64,000 bases of DNA from Parcubacteria group bacterium (GTDB lineage: Bacteria > Patescibacteriota > Minisyncoccia > Moranbacterales > UBA9337), in NCBI GenBank assembly GCA_041662245.1, contig JBAZSW010000002.1, positions 11,835 to 75,834 of the forward strand, read 5' to 3'. Shown one piece after another: positions 5,179 to 61,477 of the stretch. The notes under the pieces were generated by a model. The model was not told the DNA's origin. It was given only the letters and a program-made list of their open reading frames with translations, and did no database searches. The translations under genes were made by a program, and so were the position numbers. Within the stretch, counting starts at the first letter, position 1. Each line of letters opens with the position of its first letter.

Positions 5179-5348
5179 TTGTAGTACGGTGATGAATTGA
5201 GAGGCTTTCTGAAATTTTTTGTTTTAGGTGTTTCTAAAAATATCATTTTTTCTCGCCTTTTACATCCGCATCGGTAGTTTGAAAAAATAATATTTTTCAG
5301 AAACTAAAGTTATGGTAGCTTAAGCACTAAAATGTCGCTAATTTGAAT

Positions 5349-5382
5349 AATCAAGTGGCTTAAAATAACAACCATTAAGCTA
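5349..5382. promoter_or_regulatory. conserved 34-bp hairpin motif (copy A)
   Basis: aatcaagtggcttaaaataacaaccattaagcta with GCTTAA/TTAAGC stem. Repeated with one mismatch at 59073-59106. Confidence 0.5.
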
Positions 5383-27825: not shown

Positions 27826-27870
27826 AAAAAGTGGACATGCTAAAAAAGCACCTGTCCACTTTTTTGTTTT
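27826..27870 (+). terminator. rho-independent terminator after rplY
   Basis: AAAAGTGGACA ...loop... TGTCCACTTTT followed by TTGTTTT. Confidence 0.6.
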
Positions 27871-27909
27871 GGTGTAAAATTTATAAATTAAAAGTCAGAA
27901 GTTTTGTTT

Positions 27910-27995
27910 GTACCCCCACCAGGAATCGAACCTAGATCTTCAGCTTAGAAGTCCTGAAAGCTAAACACTTTCAGCTCTAGGTCAGTTGAGCGTAT
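27910..27995 (-). pseudogene. partial tRNA-Arg(TCT) copy (D-arm, anticodon loop and 3' half retained; 5' acceptor strand missing)
   Basis: 27910-27951 is 42/42 identical to 28066-28107 (anticodon loop through 3' end). A D-arm-like GCTCAACTGACCTAGAGC follows. There is no complement for the TGGGGGT acceptor strand, and about 22 nt are inserted before the anticodon loop. Confidence 0.5.
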
Positions 27996-28066
27996 TTATT
28001 TTGATGGAAGTTTCTTCAAAAGTTTTTTCTTTAAATTCAAAATTTGAAATTTGAAATTATTATGCG

Positions 28067-28138
28067 TACCCCCACCAGGAATCGAACCTAGATCTTCAGC
28101 TTAGAAGGCTGTTGCTCTATCCGTTGAGCTATGGGGGC
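28067..28138 (-). tRNA. tRNA-Arg (anticodon TCT)
   Basis: Minus-strand GCCCCCATAGCTCAACGGATAGAGCAACAGCCTTCTAAGCTGAAGATCTAGGTTCGATTCCTGGTGGGGGTA, which folds as a cloverleaf with anticodon loop CTTCTAA and a GTTCGATTC T-loop. Confidence 0.8.
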
Positions 28139-44093: not shown

Positions 44094-44371
44094 TATTTTA
44101 ACACGTTAGCGTATTAACATTAAAACAAATGAGCAAATATAATGATTTCAGATGCCAAATTGCAAAGTCCCAATAAAATCCAAATTTATTAATTTAATAT
44201 ATTTAGTCATTTATTTGAAATTAGGCATTGGGATTTTGATATTTTTATATATGCACAATTTTCAAATCAAAAATGCTATTGGCGTCGTTAAATGCCCTTA
44301 TTTATTCCTGAACTTCATATGGAAACTCTCTCTTGCCCAAAAAATCTAAAAGGAATAGAATTATTTTGCAT

Positions 44372-44520
44372 GAACTGGTAGCGAGTAGAGAATTTATTTC
44401 CCAAAAAAGTTTCTTTTTCCCCGGCTTTTCGTTTCACACAGTAGCTACAAAAAAGAATCCTTTTTCGGTAAATAAATTCAACGTTATAGTATTGAAATAG
44501 TTTTTACTCGATACCGCTTA
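44372..44520 (+). repeat. 149-bp intergenic repeat, copy 1 of 3 (MITE-like, imperfect terminal inverted repeats)
   Basis: 100% identical to 54675-54823 and 60670-60818. The ends GGTAGCGAGTA and TACTCGATACC form an 11-bp TIR with one mismatch. Confidence 0.8.
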
Positions 44521-44525
44521 TATGA

Positions 44526-45389
44526 TTGCCGAGGAGAAATAGAATAAAAATTCAAAATAGACTAAATATGGTAGGAAAAATTTTAAGAAAAACAAAGAGT
44601 ATTTTGTTTGCTAATCCAAAGCTTCTTTATGAAAAAGAAAAGCATTTAATTAATAAATCTTTTTATTTTAAAGGAACCAATAGAAAAGCGGTACTTCTTT
44701 TGCATGGTTGGTCAGCTACGCCTTATGAAGTAAGAAGATTAGGAAAGTATCTCAATGAGGCAGGATATACAGTTTATGGTCCTACACTGACAGGTCATGG
44801 AACAAGTCCCGAAGATTTGGAAAATGTTAAGTATGAAACTTGGCTAAATGATACTGACAATTTTATAAAAAAATTAAAAGATGGTTACGAAAAGGTTTAT
44901 GTGGGTGGAACTTCTATGGGGGCAACTTTGGCGCTTTGTGCTGCCAAAAATCATCCGGATATTGCGGGCTTGATATTGATGGCGATGCCTTATAAGGTCA
45001 GATATGAACGAACAGGGACATGGGCATTAAATTTTTTGAAAATTTTCAAAAAATATCGAAAAAAAATATATCCACCAACTTTTGGTTCCAGAAGAACAAT
45101 TACTCGGCTTATTTCTTATCAAGAATATCCCATTAGCAGTGTTTTGGAGCTGGCTAAATTAATAAAAAAATCAAGAGAGTGTCTAGCGGAAGTGACTCAG
45201 CCATGTTTTATCATGCAATCAAGCACAGATCATATCGTTACAAAAAGTAGCATGAAAAATATTTATAAAAAGATAGGTTCTCAAGAAAAAAAGAAAAAGT
45301 ATATAAGAAAATCTTATCACACTTTTATCTCGGATATAAAAAATGAAAATGTTTTTGAGGAAATACTTAAATTTATAGAGTCGATATAG
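44526..45389 (+). CDS. alpha/beta-hydrolase fold esterase/lipase
   Basis: GxSxG nucleophile elbow (GGTSMGA), HGW oxyanion region, C-terminal His. The start may be the internal Met at 44565. Confidence 0.6.
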   Translation: MPRRNRIKIQNRLNMVGKILRKTKSILFANPKLLYEKEKHLINKSFYFKGTNRKAVLLLHGWSATPYEVRRLGKYLNEAGYTVYGPTLTGHGTSPEDLENVKYETWLNDTDNFIKKLKDGYEKVYVGGTSMGATLALCAAKNHPDIAGLILMAMPYKVRYERTGTWALNFLKIFKKYRKKIYPPTFGSRRTITRLISYQEYPISSVLELAKLIKKSRECLAEVTQPCFIMQSSTDHIVTKSSMKNIYKKIGSQEKKKKYIRKSYHTFISDIKNENVFEEILKFIESI

Positions 45390-52815: not shown

Positions 52816-53153
52816 GAATGAAGAATTAAGAATCTGGGAATATGGGAATTTGAGAATTTAGGATTGTTGAGGATGTTATAATTGTTCAAACTGTTGTAGA
52901 TGATAAAAGATTTACGAATAAAAAAGTATATACTTAGGTATATACTTTTTTGATTTTAATGACAAATATCCAATGTCAAATGCCAAATAAATTTTTAATA
53001 ATTAAATTTTAAAATTAAAAGGTGTCACTTTTGTCCACGTGCGACTGAATGGACACTAATTTCTTTGGGGCGAGTTGTTGCTTGGATGGTTTGAAAATAT
53101 CATAAAAAAGTGTATTATTGAATTGTAATATATTAAATTTAATAGTAAAAAAT

Positions 53154-54575
53154 ATGAAGATAAATCCATATATTTTTCGTGGCTATGATTTAAGAGGAGT
53201 TGTTGATAAAGATCTTAATGTTGAAATAGTTGAGCATATCGGAAAAGCATTCGGGACATATCTAAAAAGAGAGGGTATCACTAGGGCTCTGATTTCCTAT
53301 GATTGTAGATTCACTAGTAAGGATTATAGCGAAGCGATGATCAGGGGCTTAACTTGGGCAGGTACGGATGTAGTTAATATAGGAATGAACTTGGTGGGCA
53401 CTTTTTATTGGGCTCAATATCATTTAGATTGTAAAGGCGGAGTTTTCGTAACAGCCTCGCATAATCCTGCTGAATATAACGGGTTTAAATTTGCCAATGA
53501 TTTTTCGGAAACTCTTGTAAGTGAGGGGATGCAAGAACTCAGAAGAATGACCGAAGAAGATGACTGCGAAAAAGGTGAAACGGTTGGAAAAGTAGAAAAT
53601 ATTGATATTCGGAAAGAATATTTAACAGATATTTCTAATCGGTTGCCTCTTTCGGGAAAGTTTAAAGTAGTAGTCGATCCAAGTTGTTCGACATCGGGAG
53701 TTATTATCCCAGATTTTCTAAGGGCGGTTGGTTGTGAGGTTATTGAAAAAAATTGTGAAATTGACCCTAGCTTTCCAATGGGAACTCCTGATCCGACAGA
53801 ATCAGCAGTAGCGGAAAGATTAAAAAATGAAGTGCTAGAAGTAGGAGCGGATATTGGATTCTCTTATGATCCAGATGGTGATAGAATCGGGATCGTTAGC
53901 GATAAAGGAGAAATAATTTGGAATGATGTTTTAGTGGCTATTTTTGCTATCGATGTTCTTTATGCTCATCCTGGAGAAAAAATAATGTTTAATACTCTCT
54001 GCTCAAAAGTCGTCCCAGAAACGATAACAAAATATGGAGGAGAGCCTTTTATGTGGAGAACAGGGCATTCCTTTTTAAAAAAGAAAAACCAAGAAATCAA
54101 AGCGGCTTTTATTGGAGAGTTATCTGGCCATTTTTTCTTTTCAACTGATTATTACAATCATGATGATGGATTTTATTCTACAATGAGGTTACTTTCTTAT
54201 CTGTCTAGAACAAACAAAAAAATGTCCCAAGCAATTGAAGATTTGCCAAAATATTTTTCAAGTCCAGAAATAAAAGTGGGTTGTGCTGATGATAAAAAGG
54301 TGGCTCTGATAGATAAAGTCAGTGAAGTGTTGAGTAAGGATTATCCTGACGCACAAGTTATTAATGATGAACGGGCAGGAGATGGAGTCAGATTGGACAT
54401 GGAAGATTCAATGTTTATAGTCAGATATTCTCAAAACGGTCCTTATTTAACTATAAAATTTGAAGCTAACAATCGAGATAAATATAATCAATTGAAAGAA
54501 TATATAAATAAATTGTTACATGAATACGAAGAAATCGATTGGAGCTATGGAGTTAATGTAGAAAGTTTAGCATGA
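53154..54575 (+). CDS. phosphoglucomutase/phosphomannomutase family protein
   Basis: TASHNPAEYNGFK active-site serine loop, the metal-binding DPDGDR motif and a sugar-binding loop. ORF trimmed to the Met at 53154. Confidence 0.85.
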   Translation: MKINPYIFRGYDLRGVVDKDLNVEIVEHIGKAFGTYLKREGITRALISYDCRFTSKDYSEAMIRGLTWAGTDVVNIGMNLVGTFYWAQYHLDCKGGVFVTASHNPAEYNGFKFANDFSETLVSEGMQELRRMTEEDDCEKGETVGKVENIDIRKEYLTDISNRLPLSGKFKVVVDPSCSTSGVIIPDFLRAVGCEVIEKNCEIDPSFPMGTPDPTESAVAERLKNEVLEVGADIGFSYDPDGDRIGIVSDKGEIIWNDVLVAIFAIDVLYAHPGEKIMFNTLCSKVVPETITKYGGEPFMWRTGHSFLKKKNQEIKAAFIGELSGHFFFSTDYYNHDDGFYSTMRLLSYLSRTNKKMSQAIEDLPKYFSSPEIKVGCADDKKVALIDKVSEVLSKDYPDAQVINDERAGDGVRLDMEDSMFIVRYSQNGPYLTIKFEANNRDKYNQLKEYINKLLHEYEEIDWSYGVNVESLA

Positions 54576-54674
54576 TATTCTTGAGGTATAAATTTGAATA
54601 GAAAACTGCTAGTTTATTTGGCAGTTTTTTTGTTTTGTTTTTTGGGTTATGTAATATATAATTAAAGAAATAGA

Positions 54675-54823
54675 GAACTGGTAGCGAGTAGAGAATTTAT
54701 TTCCCAAAAAAGTTTCTTTTTCCCCGGCTTTTCGTTTCACACAGTAGCTACAAAAAAGAATCCTTTTTCGGTAAATAAATTCAACGTTATAGTATTGAAA
54801 TAGTTTTTACTCGATACCGCTTA
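54675..54823 (+). repeat. 149-bp intergenic repeat, copy 2 of 3
   Basis: Identical to 44372-44520. Confidence 0.8.
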
Positions 54824-54829
54824 AGAAAG

Positions 54830-54960
54830 AATCAATTTTCTTCTCCTCATCCCCTTTGAAGGGGAGGTGTCCGAAAGGCGGAGGGGTTGGAAATCTAAAA
54901 AGAAACCCCCTCTGTCCTAACGGACATCTCCCCCTTTGGGTACAAAGATGGAGAGGGGAA
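54830..54960. other. GC-rich extended palindromic element in the 5' region of the acyl-CoA synthetase gene
   Basis: GGGGAGGTGTCCG ... GGAGGGGTT ... AACCCCCTC ... CGGACATCTCCCC forms nested inverted repeats. Flanking CCCCTTTGAAGGGG and CCCCCTTTGGG mini-hairpins. The local GC is far above the window background. Confidence 0.35.
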
Positions 54961-54985
54961 AGTTTTATTTTTAAAAAATAAAAAA

Positions 54986-57058
54986 ATGAAAAAAAATTTA
55001 GAAAAACTTTTTAATCCAACTACTGTGGCGATCGTGGGTTCTTCAGACAGAGAAGGAAGCGTGGGTTATGCTATTGTTAAAAACCTTTTAAATTTGGGTT
55101 ATGCAGGAGAAGTATTTTTAGTTAATCCTAAATATACAGAACTTTTAGGCAAAAAATGTTATGCTTCTTTAAATGATGTGGAAAAAGAAATTGATTTAGC
55201 TATTATTGTTATTCCTGCAACTTTTGTGAATGAGACAATCAAATTGGCAGAGAGGGTAAAGAACTTCATCGTTATTTCAGCGGGTTTTTCGGAAATTGGA
55301 AAAGATGGAAGAACGAAGGAGTTTGAGTTAGCAAAACTTGCGCGAGATAAGGGGGTGAATATTTTGGGACCAAATTGTTTGGGATTTATCTCACCAAAAA
55401 TAAAATTGAATGCTTCTTTTGCGAGCGGTCTTCCGGAGAGTGGAGGAGTTTCTCTAATTTCTCAATCAGGAGCTTTGGTAGTAGCGATGTTGGATATGGC
55501 CAAGGAGAAACAAATTAAATTTTCTCAAATAATTTCCGTAGGCAACAAGATGCAATTAGATGAAATAGAGTTGATAGAGTATCTAGCTAGTGATGAAGAG
55601 ACAAAGGTAATTGCTCTTTATCTAGAAGGGATTAGAGATGGTCAGAAATTCATCGAAGTAGTAAAAAAAGTTTCTCAAAAAAAACCAGTTATCATCCTTA
55701 AGGCAGGCAGGAGCGAAAAAGCACAAAAAGCTATTGCCTCTCATACGGGTTCTCTCGCGGGAAGCGATGAAATAATGAATGTGGCCTTTGAAAAAGCAGG
55801 AGCTGTCAGAGCAGAAAGTTTGGAAGATTTTTTTGTATTGATAACATTGATGTCTAATTTTAAAAATTCTGTTAGCAAGGATTGTATAATTATCACTAAC
55901 GCGGGTGGCCCTGGAGTGTTGGCTACAGATGCATTTGCAAATAAAAATATAAAGTTAAAAGAATTTTCAGAAAAAACCAAGGAAAAATTAAGAAGTTTTT
56001 TACCTAGTGAATCTTCAGTGGAAAATCCCATTGATTTATTGGGTGACGCGGGAATAGAAAGATATCAAAAAACATTGGAGTTGCTAGAAGAGGAAGATGC
56101 GGGTAATATAATCTGTTTAATGACTGCTCAAGATCAGACTCCCACTAAAGAAATTTCTCAAATTATCGTAGATTTTAGTAAAAAAACCAAAAAGAATATT
56201 TTGCCAGTTTTTATTGGAGGAGAAAAAATGAAAGACGCGATTGCTTTACTAAAAAATAATAATATTCCTAATTTTGACTTTCCTAAAGAAATATTGGATG
56301 CTTTAAATAAAATGTTAGGAAGTAAGAAAAATGAAGATATTCTTCCTGCTAAAATTAAAAAAAATGAATCTTTGCTCAAAAAATTGTTTGGTTCTAAAAA
56401 GGAAAGCATTATAGAAAAAGCTACAAGTAAAAATAGGAAAGCCCTTTTATTTGGTGAGGCAGGGGAGCTGATGAAACAATATTCTATTCCTGTAGTGGAC
56501 TTTTTGAATCTTTCTCCCGAGGGAAAAATCGACAGTAGTCGAGTTAATTTTCCGGTAGTTTTAAAAGTGGATAGCGAAGATGTTCTCCATAAGACCGAGA
56601 AGAAAGGCTTGATATTAGGAATTGGTGATGCGATTGAGTTAGAAAATAACATTTTGGAGATGAGAAATAATTTTCCTAGAGAAAATTTGATTATTCAGCC
56701 GATGGTGAGTTATGAAACGGAATTGATTTTGGGATTAAAAAGGGATTTAGTTTTCGGTCCTGTAATAGTTTTTGGTTTGGGAGGAATTTATACGGAAGTT
56801 TTTAAGATGGTGGATTTTTTGATTTTACCTTTAAGCAAAAATGAAATAGAAAAAAGAGTAATAGAAAGCAAAATAGGATTTTTATTTAAAGAAACTAGAG
56901 GAAAGAAAGCGGGAGATATCGATGAATTTGTAAATTTGATTTTTAATTTTGCGAGCTTGGCGGAAACCGAAGAAAAAATAAAGGAAATTGATATCAATCC
57001 GCTTTTAATAACTAAAGAGGGAAGATTGAAGGCGGTAGATGTGAAAATAATACTTTAA
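54986..57058 (+). CDS. acetate--CoA ligase (ADP-forming) / NDP-forming acyl-CoA synthetase, fused alpha-beta
   Basis: N-terminal CoA-binding Rossmann (TVAIVGSSDREGSVGYAI), a succinyl-CoA-synthetase-like ligase-CoA domain with a conserved His loop (IASHTGSLAG), and a C-terminal ATP-grasp. 690 aa. Confidence 0.75.
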   Translation: MKKNLEKLFNPTTVAIVGSSDREGSVGYAIVKNLLNLGYAGEVFLVNPKYTELLGKKCYASLNDVEKEIDLAIIVIPATFVNETIKLAERVKNFIVISAGFSEIGKDGRTKEFELAKLARDKGVNILGPNCLGFISPKIKLNASFASGLPESGGVSLISQSGALVVAMLDMAKEKQIKFSQIISVGNKMQLDEIELIEYLASDEETKVIALYLEGIRDGQKFIEVVKKVSQKKPVIILKAGRSEKAQKAIASHTGSLAGSDEIMNVAFEKAGAVRAESLEDFFVLITLMSNFKNSVSKDCIIITNAGGPGVLATDAFANKNIKLKEFSEKTKEKLRSFLPSESSVENPIDLLGDAGIERYQKTLELLEEEDAGNIICLMTAQDQTPTKEISQIIVDFSKKTKKNILPVFIGGEKMKDAIALLKNNNIPNFDFPKEILDALNKMLGSKKNEDILPAKIKKNESLLKKLFGSKKESIIEKATSKNRKALLFGEAGELMKQYSIPVVDFLNLSPEGKIDSSRVNFPVVLKVDSEDVLHKTEKKGLILGIGDAIELENNILEMRNNFPRENLIIQPMVSYETELILGLKRDLVFGPVIVFGLGGIYTEVFKMVDFLILPLSKNEIEKRVIESKIGFLFKETRGKKAGDIDEFVNLIFNFASLAETEEKIKEIDINPLLITKEGRLKAVDVKIIL

Positions 57059-58886: not shown

Positions 58887-59072
58887 ATAACGGGTAGCAA
58901 CCGGATATATTTAGGATTGATAAAATAGCGATTGTTTTATAAAATTAATTTTTGTGTTAAAATGTACATTGATATAGTCAATTAAAGTCAATCCCTCTAG
59001 GGTCTTTATTCGGCTAGCTTAATAGTTTTTTAGCATCTTCAATTGTTTAATTTAAATTTCTATAAAATAAGC

Positions 59073-59106
59073 AATCAAGTGGCTTAAAATAATAACCATT
59101 AAGCTA
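59073..59106. promoter_or_regulatory. conserved 34-bp hairpin motif (copy B)
   Basis: aatcaagtggcttaaaataataaccattaagcta, 33/34 identical to 5349-5382. Confidence 0.5.
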
Positions 59107-60479: not shown

Positions 60480-60669
60480 AAATATTAAAATTTTTAAATT
60501 TTATTATTCCTAAAGAAACAAATTTCAAATCAATTTTAAATGTGAGACTGTGTCAATATATTTTTTGTGAGTTTGAAATTTGTTTGTGTCTTGTGGCTTG
60601 GAATTTATGATTTTAAAGTAGTTTTTTGGTTTGCTTTGTGTTTATTTATGTGCTAAACTCTATAAGTAT

Positions 60670-60818
60670 GAACTGGTAGCGAGTAGAGAATTTATTTCCC
60701 AAAAAAGTTTCTTTTTCCCCGGCTTTTCGTTTCACACAGTAGCTACAAAAAAGAATCCTTTTTCGGTAAATAAATTCAACGTTATAGTATTGAAATAGTT
60801 TTTACTCGATACCGCTTA
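60670..60818 (+). repeat. 149-bp intergenic repeat, copy 3 of 3
   Basis: Identical to 44372-44520. Ends 36 bp upstream of ndk. Confidence 0.8.
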
Positions 60819-60853
60819 TATTAAAAAATAAATTATTTAAATTTTTAAAAAAT

Positions 60854-61477
60854 ATGACTGAAGAAAAGATGCATCCTAAAAAAGAAAGAACCCTAGTTAT
60901 TATCAAGCCAGATGGAGTACAGAGAACTTTGATTGGAGAAATTATCAAAAGATATGAGCGCGTGGGACTTAAACTGATGGGGTTAAAAATGCTTATTCCA
61001 ACTGAGGAAATGGCGATTAAGCATTATTACGAAGTAGGGGGCGATGCTTGGCTGGAAGAGGTGGGAAGAAAAGCTTCGGCTTCTTATGAAAAGAAAGGGC
61101 TAAAATCACCTTTCGCAACTTTCAAGGACAATGGAATAGCCATTATGAACGCCAATGCTAAATATTTAAGCTCAGGTCCTGTAATTGCAATGATTTGGGA
61201 GGGCAATCAAGCTGTGGCTTTGGTACGAAAAATTACAGGAGGAACAGAACCTTTATCATCTGACATGGGAACTATTCGCGGAGATTTTACCTTGGATACT
61301 TACCAGATGGCGGATGTCGATCAGCGAAGTATTCGAAATTTAATTCATGCTTCAGGTCTTGTGGAAGAGGCGGAAAAAGAAATTCCAATTTGGTTTAGCG
61401 AAGGTGAAATTTTAACTTATCGATTAATTCAAGATGAAATTTTATATGACGTTAATCTTGATGGCATACTTGAATAG
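60854..61477 (+). CDS. ndk: nucleoside-diphosphate kinase with an internal insertion of about 45 aa
   Basis: ERTLVIIKPDGVQRTLIGEIIKRYE N-terminus, GTIRGDF, and NLIHASG...AEKEIPIWF (catalytic His). 207 aa against a typical 135-150 aa, with the extra sequence in the Kpn-loop region. Confidence 0.8.
   Translation: MTEEKMHPKKERTLVIIKPDGVQRTLIGEIIKRYERVGLKLMGLKMLIPTEEMAIKHYYEVGGDAWLEEVGRKASASYEKKGLKSPFATFKDNGIAIMNANAKYLSSGPVIAMIWEGNQAVALVRKITGGTEPLSSDMGTIRGDFTLDTYQMADVDQRSIRNLIHASGLVEEAEKEIPIWFSEGEILTYRLIQDEILYDVNLDGILE

Follow-up and report, generated by a model that had tools for sequence, protein, structure and literature searches.

A recently mobile 149-bp element, very probably a MITE, upstream of three genes in a Moranbacteria genome

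We find that the streamlined genome of an ultra-small member of the Moranbacteria (CPR/Patescibacteria) hosts what is very probably a MITE, that is, a non-coding, AT-rich and non-autonomous DNA transposon of 149 bp that has moved recently. The element is present in three identical copies in the 64-kb stretch of DNA that was analysed (hereafter the window), and its mobility is shown by the precise empty sites that related genomes carry at the positions of two of these copies. MITEs are a well-known kind of element that is newly seen here in the Moranbacteria/CPR group; in full-text literature searches we found no papers describing MITEs in CPR/Patescibacteria. The GC content of the window is ~33%, and its GC skew is strongly positive. 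For its TypA, proteins of ~95% identity occur in Candidatus Moranbacteria/Moraniibacteriota MAGs, and an exact look-up identified its proteins on record as MFA6183718-MFA6183729.

The initial annotation of the window, made from the sequence by itself, had described a 149-bp element in three identical copies. A repeat search of the 64-kb window, together with a MAFFT alignment of the copies with their flanks, recovers exactly this arrangement: the copies are 149 nt long and 100% identical, and their flanks are mutually unrelated. The three copies are as follows:

44372-44520, + strand: copy 1 of the element, 149 nt, in the leader of an alpha/beta-hydrolase gene
54675-54823, + strand: copy 2, between the genes for phosphoglucomutase (PGM) and ADP-forming acetyl-CoA synthetase
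60670-60818, + strand: copy 3, in the leader of ndk

A search with the leading 19 nt of the element finds exactly three matches in the window (+ strand positions 44372, 54675 and 60670), a number that was reached in none of 100 dinucleotide-preserving shuffles. All three copies are intergenic, lie on the + strand and stand 5' of + strand genes, just as had been described. The distance of 6-160 bp initially given between the copies and these genes survives in part only: copy 1 does end 6 nt before an ORF, albeit one that starts with TTG, whereas the annotated ATG of the hydrolase at 44568 (record protein of 273 aa, MFA6183718.1) lies 47 nt from the end of the copy, and the corresponding distances are 162 nt for copy 2 (ATG of the ADP-forming acetyl-CoA synthetase at 54986) and 35 nt for copy 3 (ATG of ndk at 60854). 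On its other side, copy 2 starts 44 nt past a terminator-like hairpin of the PGM gene. Sensitive blastn and nhmmer searches detected no diverged or partial further copies in the 64-kb window or in any of the fetched loci, and the count of three copies refers to the 64-kb window. Neither the fact that 16.4 kb of the 64-kb window contains all three copies (estimated P ~0.16) nor their shared orientation (estimated P 0.25, or 1 in 4) was judged to be significant.

The anatomy of the element, given here for copy 1, comprises a pair of terminal inverted repeats (TIRs) that enclose a second, longer palindrome:

44372-44387, + strand: left TIR, GAACTGGTAGCGAGTA, with its core GGTAGCGAGTA at 44377-44387; same offsets in copies 2 and 3
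44505-44520, - strand: right TIR, reading TACTCGATACCGCTTA on the + strand, with its core TACTCGATACC at 44505-44515; same offsets in copies 2 and 3
44390-44479, unstranded: inner imperfect palindrome with 29-nt arms (44390-44418 and 44451-44479) that are 79% complementary, around a 32-nt centre

The termini had been described as reverse complements apart from one mismatch, and this is true of the 11-bp cores GGTAGCGAGTA and TACTCGATACC, which are 91% complementary. Counted from the tips, 12 of 16 positions match, with a poor match in the 5 nt nearest each tip. Within the window the TIR motif occurs at the six element ends, plus a single match with one mismatch elsewhere. The element has a GC content of 33.6% and its termini are GA...TA. 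It had also been suggested that the two ends would pair into a stem on transcription, and folding indeed predicts that the inner palindrome and the TIRs form one long imperfect hairpin on either strand (MFE -35.7 kcal/mol, z = -4.2 on the + strand; MFE -40.8 kcal/mol, z = -4.6 on the - strand), with ~25 nt of the right arm (element positions ~109-133) largely unpaired in the predicted + strand fold. No usable ORF is present in the element, its six frames being interrupted by stops or lacking a start shared between copies, and a chimeric peptide of the six frames, meant to pick up other copies through spurious gene calls, found no match among 5.8 billion proteins. In Rfam, the element matches no family at the gathering threshold, which only tRNAs passed in the window; the sub-threshold matches returned for the element by a permissive search were to miRNA-precursor models, and we reject them as generic-hairpin noise.

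Evidence for mobility comes from the sequences that border the copies. A 3-bp direct repeat, which we interpret as a target-site duplication (TSD), flanks each of them (cAT/TAT, AGA/AGA and TAT/TAT, the pair at copy 1 being imperfect); by chance, flanks would agree over 3 nt with a probability of ~0.02 per copy. These triplets, for which no strand applies, are:

44369-44371: left TSD of copy 1, CAT
44521-44523: right TSD of copy 1, TAT
54672-54674: left TSD of copy 2, AGA
54824-54826: right TSD of copy 2, AGA
60667-60669: left TSD of copy 3, TAT
60819-60821: right TSD of copy 3, TAT

The junctions read TTTTGCAT-element-TATGATTG at copy 1 (longer right flank TATGATTGC), AAATAGA-element-AGAAAGAA at copy 2 and ATAAGTAT-element-TATTAAAA at copy 3. 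No sequence consensus is visible around the three targets, whose left flanks end in GCAT, TAGA and GTAT.

Contigs of related Moranbacteria reveal the corresponding empty sites. At the position of copy 1, three contigs from other samples that carry the same hydrolase gene at ~88% nucleotide identity (L008 from ENA, L009 and L010 from JGI) have no element and a single TAT, the site reading ...GAATTATTTCGTAT / GATTGC (also given as ...GAATAGAATTATTTCGTAT / GATTGCAGAG). At the position of copy 3, a Logan contig (L012) that encodes an NDK with 94% amino acid identity, in the same gene order as in the window, likewise has no element and a single TAT, in the context ...CTATAAGTAT / CGAAAATT (also given as ...CTATAAGTAT / CGAAAATTAAATT), where CTATAAGTAT is also the left flank of copy 3. 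Once the window sequence is stripped of the element and of one TAT, the sites of copies 1 and 3 align to these relatives without a gap at the junction. The element is also missing from relatives that are syntenic but more distant (L002, L003 and L018); its absence from the ndk site applies to both L018 and L002. The empty-site evidence covers copies 1 and 3, for which close relatives were available. The element is thus mobile, its insertion being shown by precise empty sites at two of the three copies, and the copies are young, since they are 100% identical to one another as against a divergence of ~12-18% between orthologous genes of the window and of the relatives with empty sites. The original suggestion of a MITE-like element that transposed recently is consequently well supported, by 3-bp TSDs at all three copies and by empty sites at two; a lack of empty sites in relatives had been named as part of the outcome that would speak against it, and such sites are present in L008-L010 and L012.

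Prokaryotic MITEs are defined as AT-rich, intergenic elements of <500 bp with TIRs of 4-30 bp and stem-loop transcripts (Minnick 2024, PMC10969869), in which flanking direct repeats are found in young copies (PMC10969869). Every structural feature that this review lists for prokaryotic MITEs is present in the element: it is non-coding and, at 149 nt, below 500 bp; its TIRs have arms of 11 bp, or 12 matches in 16 positions from the tips; direct repeats of 3 bp flank all three copies; it occurs in multiple copies (three) and shows insertion polymorphism, given the empty sites of L008-L010 and L012; and it is intergenic and AT-rich (33.6% GC) with a stable stem-loop in the predicted fold. Given the presence of TSDs and TIRs, we infer staggered cutting by a trans-acting transposase of the DDE type. 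A putative DDE-type transposase, encoded elsewhere, would have bound the TIRs in trans, and cuts staggered by 3 bp at insertion would have yielded the 3-bp target-site duplication, the element presumably having moved very recently by cut-and-paste or copy-and-paste.

The absence of a transposase from the window, as initially reported, holds for the 50 ORFs that were scanned against Pfam, none of which has a transposase domain. The definition of prokaryotic MITEs also includes a cognate autonomous insertion sequence (IS) with matching TIRs, by which a MITE can be mobilised in trans. Such an IS had been proposed as something to look for, and none was found in the window, the GTDB species genomes, the JGI metagenomes or IMG/VR. 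Across 185,579 GTDB species genomes (one per species), the TIR-pair pattern GGTAGCGAGTA-N100-130-TACTCGATACC gave one match, in a Verrucomicrobia MAG of 62% GC (L001) with GTAGCGAGTAG-type repeats, which we reject because alignment shows no relation to the element. A scan of JGI metagenomes with 18-mers gave four matches (L004-L007) of only 18-21 nt, 20-mers from the left and right ends had no match in IMG/VR, and distant-mode blastn of the element against PLSDB plasmids and INPHARED phages gave no match. As no relatives were found in the collections searched, the element in its present form appears to be confined to its lineage. The match in L006 (positions 730-750 of a 129-kb JGI contig of 37% GC) covers 21 nt of the element's left end, AACTGGTAGCGAGTAGAGAAT, without a mismatch; it directly follows a stop codon, and no matching right end occurs within 11.7 kb. 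It is probably a chance match, and could conceivably be the solo end of a related element. A TSD of 3 bp is typical of the families IS3, IS30 and IS982 and of the IS5 subgroups IS1031 and ISL2. Members of the IS3 family generate TSDs of 3-5 bp and have the termini 5'-TG...CA-3'; the 3-bp TSD of our element would fit, yet its termini are GA...TA rather than TG...CA, and they argue against a canonical IS3 end.

Several described MITEs resemble the element in form. Correia elements (CREE/NEMIS) of Neisseria are likewise non-coding, of similar size (~100-200 bp), bounded by TIRs and intergenic, often just upstream of genes. They duplicate TA and have TIRs of ~26 bp and an IHF site, whereas the element described here has a 3-bp TSD (TAT or AGA) and TIRs of 11-16 bp, resides in Patescibacteria/CPR and is present in three copies in the 64-kb window, compared with >100 copies for Correia. 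We consequently reject membership of the Correia/NEMIS group, on the grounds of TSD and TIR length; the two also appear to share no sequence similarity. A Correia element directly downstream of the mtrCDE promoter is co-transcribed, and its TIR hairpin is cut by RNase III (PMC10969869). By analogy, Correia offers the closest functional parallel for a MITE hairpin embedded in a leader. The ERIC/IRU elements of Enterobacteriaceae and RUP of Streptococcus pneumoniae are also intergenic imperfect palindromes (~107-127 bp), from other hosts and with no sequence similarity to our element. RUP duplicates TA (IS630-type), and ERIC copies are old and diverged, whereas those of our element are 100% identical. 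ERIC/IRU and RUP are transcribed with neighbouring genes and can change mRNA stability, and RUP is presumed to owe its mobility to an IS that acts in trans (PMC10969869). QMITE1 and QMITE2 of Coxiella burnetii and Chunjie of Geobacter have TIRs, direct repeats and stem-loop transcripts, are located in intergenic regions or UTRs, and in some cases have no clearly assigned parent IS (PMC10969869). These three elements exist as many copies with graded decay and size variants, as opposed to three pristine copies in the window, and QMITE2 is found mainly in 3' UTRs rather than in 5' leaders.

The sole potentially unusual feature of the element is the promoter-proximal and sense-oriented placement of all three copies. 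A promoter-like site lies just upstream of each:

44333-44361, + strand: promoter-like site at copy 1, TTGCCC-17-TAGAAT, ending 10 nt before the copy
54635-54662, + strand: promoter-like site at copy 2, TTGTTT-16-TATAAT, ending 12 nt before the copy
60631-60659, + strand: promoter-like site at copy 3, TTGCTT-17-(TGc)TAAACT, ending 10 nt before the copy

The hexamers at copy 1 belong to a stretch of 46 nt whose conservation in L008-L010 is 93%, the sequence farther upstream being not alignable, and the site at ndk has promoter-like counterparts in L012 (TTGCCC-17-(TGt)TAAAAT) and L018 (TTGCTA-17-(TGc)TAAAAT). Transcripts from sigma-70 promoters start ~7 nt past the -10 hexamer, which would place the duplicated target triplets at about +2 to +6. 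With copies that follow a -10-like hexamer by 10-12 nt in the sense direction, the element is probably, by a modest measure, transcribed from the resident promoter together with the downstream gene, whose direction it shares. If so, the promoter geometry implies that it would occupy the initial ~150 nt of each 5' leader, and the mRNAs of ndk, the hydrolase and the acetyl-CoA synthetase would each gain a predicted stable imperfect hairpin of 140 nt. By analogy with Correia elements cleaved by RNase III, we consider the chances somewhat better than even that such a leader hairpin could alter mRNA processing or stability. An alternative explanation, to which we also give slightly favourable odds, is that the insertions are merely tolerated, leaders being among the few dispensable positions in a genome of ~1 Mb. 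The three loci offer natural comparisons, with and without the element, of how a 140-nt leader hairpin relates to the expression of ndk, acetyl-CoA synthetase and the hydrolase.

A more far-reaching hypothesis is that the transposase itself selects positions +2 to +6, for example at the edge of an open complex. The -10-like hexamers that end 10, 12 and 10 nt before the insertions are consistent with such targeting, as is the shared orientation of the three copies; moreover, a -10-like hexamer whose end lies 10-12 nt upstream is found for only 1.4% of the window's intergenic positions when a -35 TTG is required (8.4% under relaxed criteria). However, this regularity rests on three copies, and both the criteria and the distance window were picked after the data had been seen, so that the fixed spacing of 10-12 nt is suggestive only. 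Furthermore, -10-like hexamers are frequent in AT-rich intergenic DNA, purifying selection in a compact genome could produce a similar pattern, and there is no visible target consensus. We consequently regard promoter-proximal targeting as unlikely, and as equally unlikely its corollary that the element is a selected mobile 5'-leader module rather than a tolerated insertion. Less likely still is the extended version, in which sense insertion aimed at +2 to +6 would provide a gene with a new 5'-leader hairpin at each jump and make the element a mobile module for post-transcriptional control or stability that spreads among the leaders of one streamlined CPR genome; its mobiliser might then be a yet-unrecognised transposase, given that no matching IS was found in the public collections searched. 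Should the promoter spacing hold genome-wide, the element would clearly exemplify, in a bacterium, the choice of targets close to the transcription start; failing that, it is an ordinary MITE, of use mainly for annotation and as a strain marker.

A different role for the element would be that of a mobile promoter, each insertion bringing an outward sigma-70 promoter from which the downstream gene is expressed. Working promoters are known from some subtypes of Correia and from several other MITEs (PMC10969869), and all three copies of our element point at the downstream gene, an orientation common to all three being expected by chance in 1 of 4 cases. The initial annotation had named a TTGAAA...TATAT pair near the 3' end as the promoter; we reject this candidate, since its 21-nt spacer is not plausible for sigma-70 and it passed neither of our promoter scans. 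The relaxed scan did return one weak internal match that faces the downstream gene and reaches into the unpaired bulge of the right arm:

44462-44490, + strand: weak internal promoter-like match, TTTTCG-17-TATAGT, 8/12 positions, element positions 91-119

The -35 hexamer of this match is poor, however, and stricter consensus scans found no promoter inside the element. In addition, a resident promoter-like site closely precedes each insertion, and two of these three are conserved in relatives that are without the element. Promoter activity of the element is possible but weakly supported by its sequence, and promoter donation at each insertion strikes us as doubtful.

We consider it very improbable that the element is a small element of a non-DDE kind, such as a PATE of IS200/IS605, a MITE of the IS110/IS1111 type or a REP/BIME-like repeat. 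Its strongly palindromic interior and the fact that no DDE parent was found would be compatible with this possibility. However, elements of the PATE, IS110/IS1111-type and REP/BIME classes insert without target duplication and are without TIRs, IS200/IS605 elements insert 3' of a fixed motif of 4-5 nt, and REPs are 20-40 nt long and linked to RAYT. The element has both TSDs and TIRs, which excludes the PATE and REP classes; in addition, its left flanks differ from copy to copy (GCAT, TAGA, GTAT) and it is 149 nt in length.

The reading of the element as an immobile, conserved cis-regulatory RNA or operator of three operons, which the initial annotation had offered as its alternative, might draw on the strong predicted hairpin and on the position of all copies 5' of genes, yet it is contradicted by the absence of the element from the orthologous leaders of L002, L003, L008-L010, L012 and L018, by the 3-bp duplication at each copy, by the 100% identity of copies beside unrelated flanks, by the lack of an Rfam match and by the functional unrelatedness of the three genes, and we give it almost no credence.

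An assembly artefact, in which repeated or chimeric sequence was introduced at contig joins of a MAG, is just as improbable. It is true that the source is a metagenome-assembled genome and that short-read assemblies break at the element: among the Logan contigs of SRR18595301, which are independent assemblies 100% identical to the window, one (L011) starts inside copy 1 at 44494 and another (L019) inside copy 2 at 54795, and the 5,903-nt contig behind L019 is predicted from its recorded size to end ~28 nt into copy 3. Short-read assemblers usually end contigs at repeats in this way, and the element accounts for the fragmentation of such assemblies of this organism at the loci concerned. The same contigs join 27-29 nt of the element to unique flank at copies 1 and 2, which confirms the right junctions of both, and an artefact would not yield site-specific 3-bp duplications that match single copies in the empty sites of relatives. 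We therefore exclude, for practical purposes, both this explanation and that of an immobile, conserved regulatory element.

The surroundings of copy 2 contain two further features. Between this copy and the acetyl-CoA synthetase start, positions 54834-54965 (+ strand) form a GC-rich, long imperfect hairpin of ~130 nt (RNA MFE -67.7 kcal/mol, z = -5.6) in a genome of 33% GC; the window contains it once, the fetched relatives are without it and no Rfam family matches it. It may represent either a leader structure or a second kind of palindromic insertion. On the other side, the phosphoglucomutase gene (53118-54575), which is on the + strand in the window, is inverted in L002 (11979-13337) and L003 (12085-13443), pointing to a local rearrangement that adjoins the copy 2 site.

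Elsewhere in the window, a block of 34 nt, AATCAAGTGGCTTAAAATAA(C/T)AACCATTAAGCTA, recurs nearly identically at 5330-5382 and 59054-59106 (+ strand), with an internal GCTTAA/TTAAGC inverted repeat, and lies ~40 nt upstream of two cell-wall genes, encoding a Mur ligase (5425) and an SLT-like transglycosylase (59142). A similar AAGTGGCT...AAGCTA motif is found upstream of ndk in L018 (1700-1735), and the block may be a shared operator or RNA motif. A direct repeat of 79% identity (27866-27951 and 28022-28107), the last ~45 nt of which duplicate the 3' half of tRNA-Arg(tct) (28066-28138, - strand) at a distance of 156 nt, looks like an att-type remnant of an integrase event beside a tRNA-Arg/tRNA-Lys pair. 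Finally, positions 13062-16406 (+ strand) encode a 425-aa ORF without a Pfam match and, immediately after it, a TrwB/TraG-like coupling ATPase of 687 aa that includes a zinc finger, possibly the remnant of a conjugation or DNA-uptake module.
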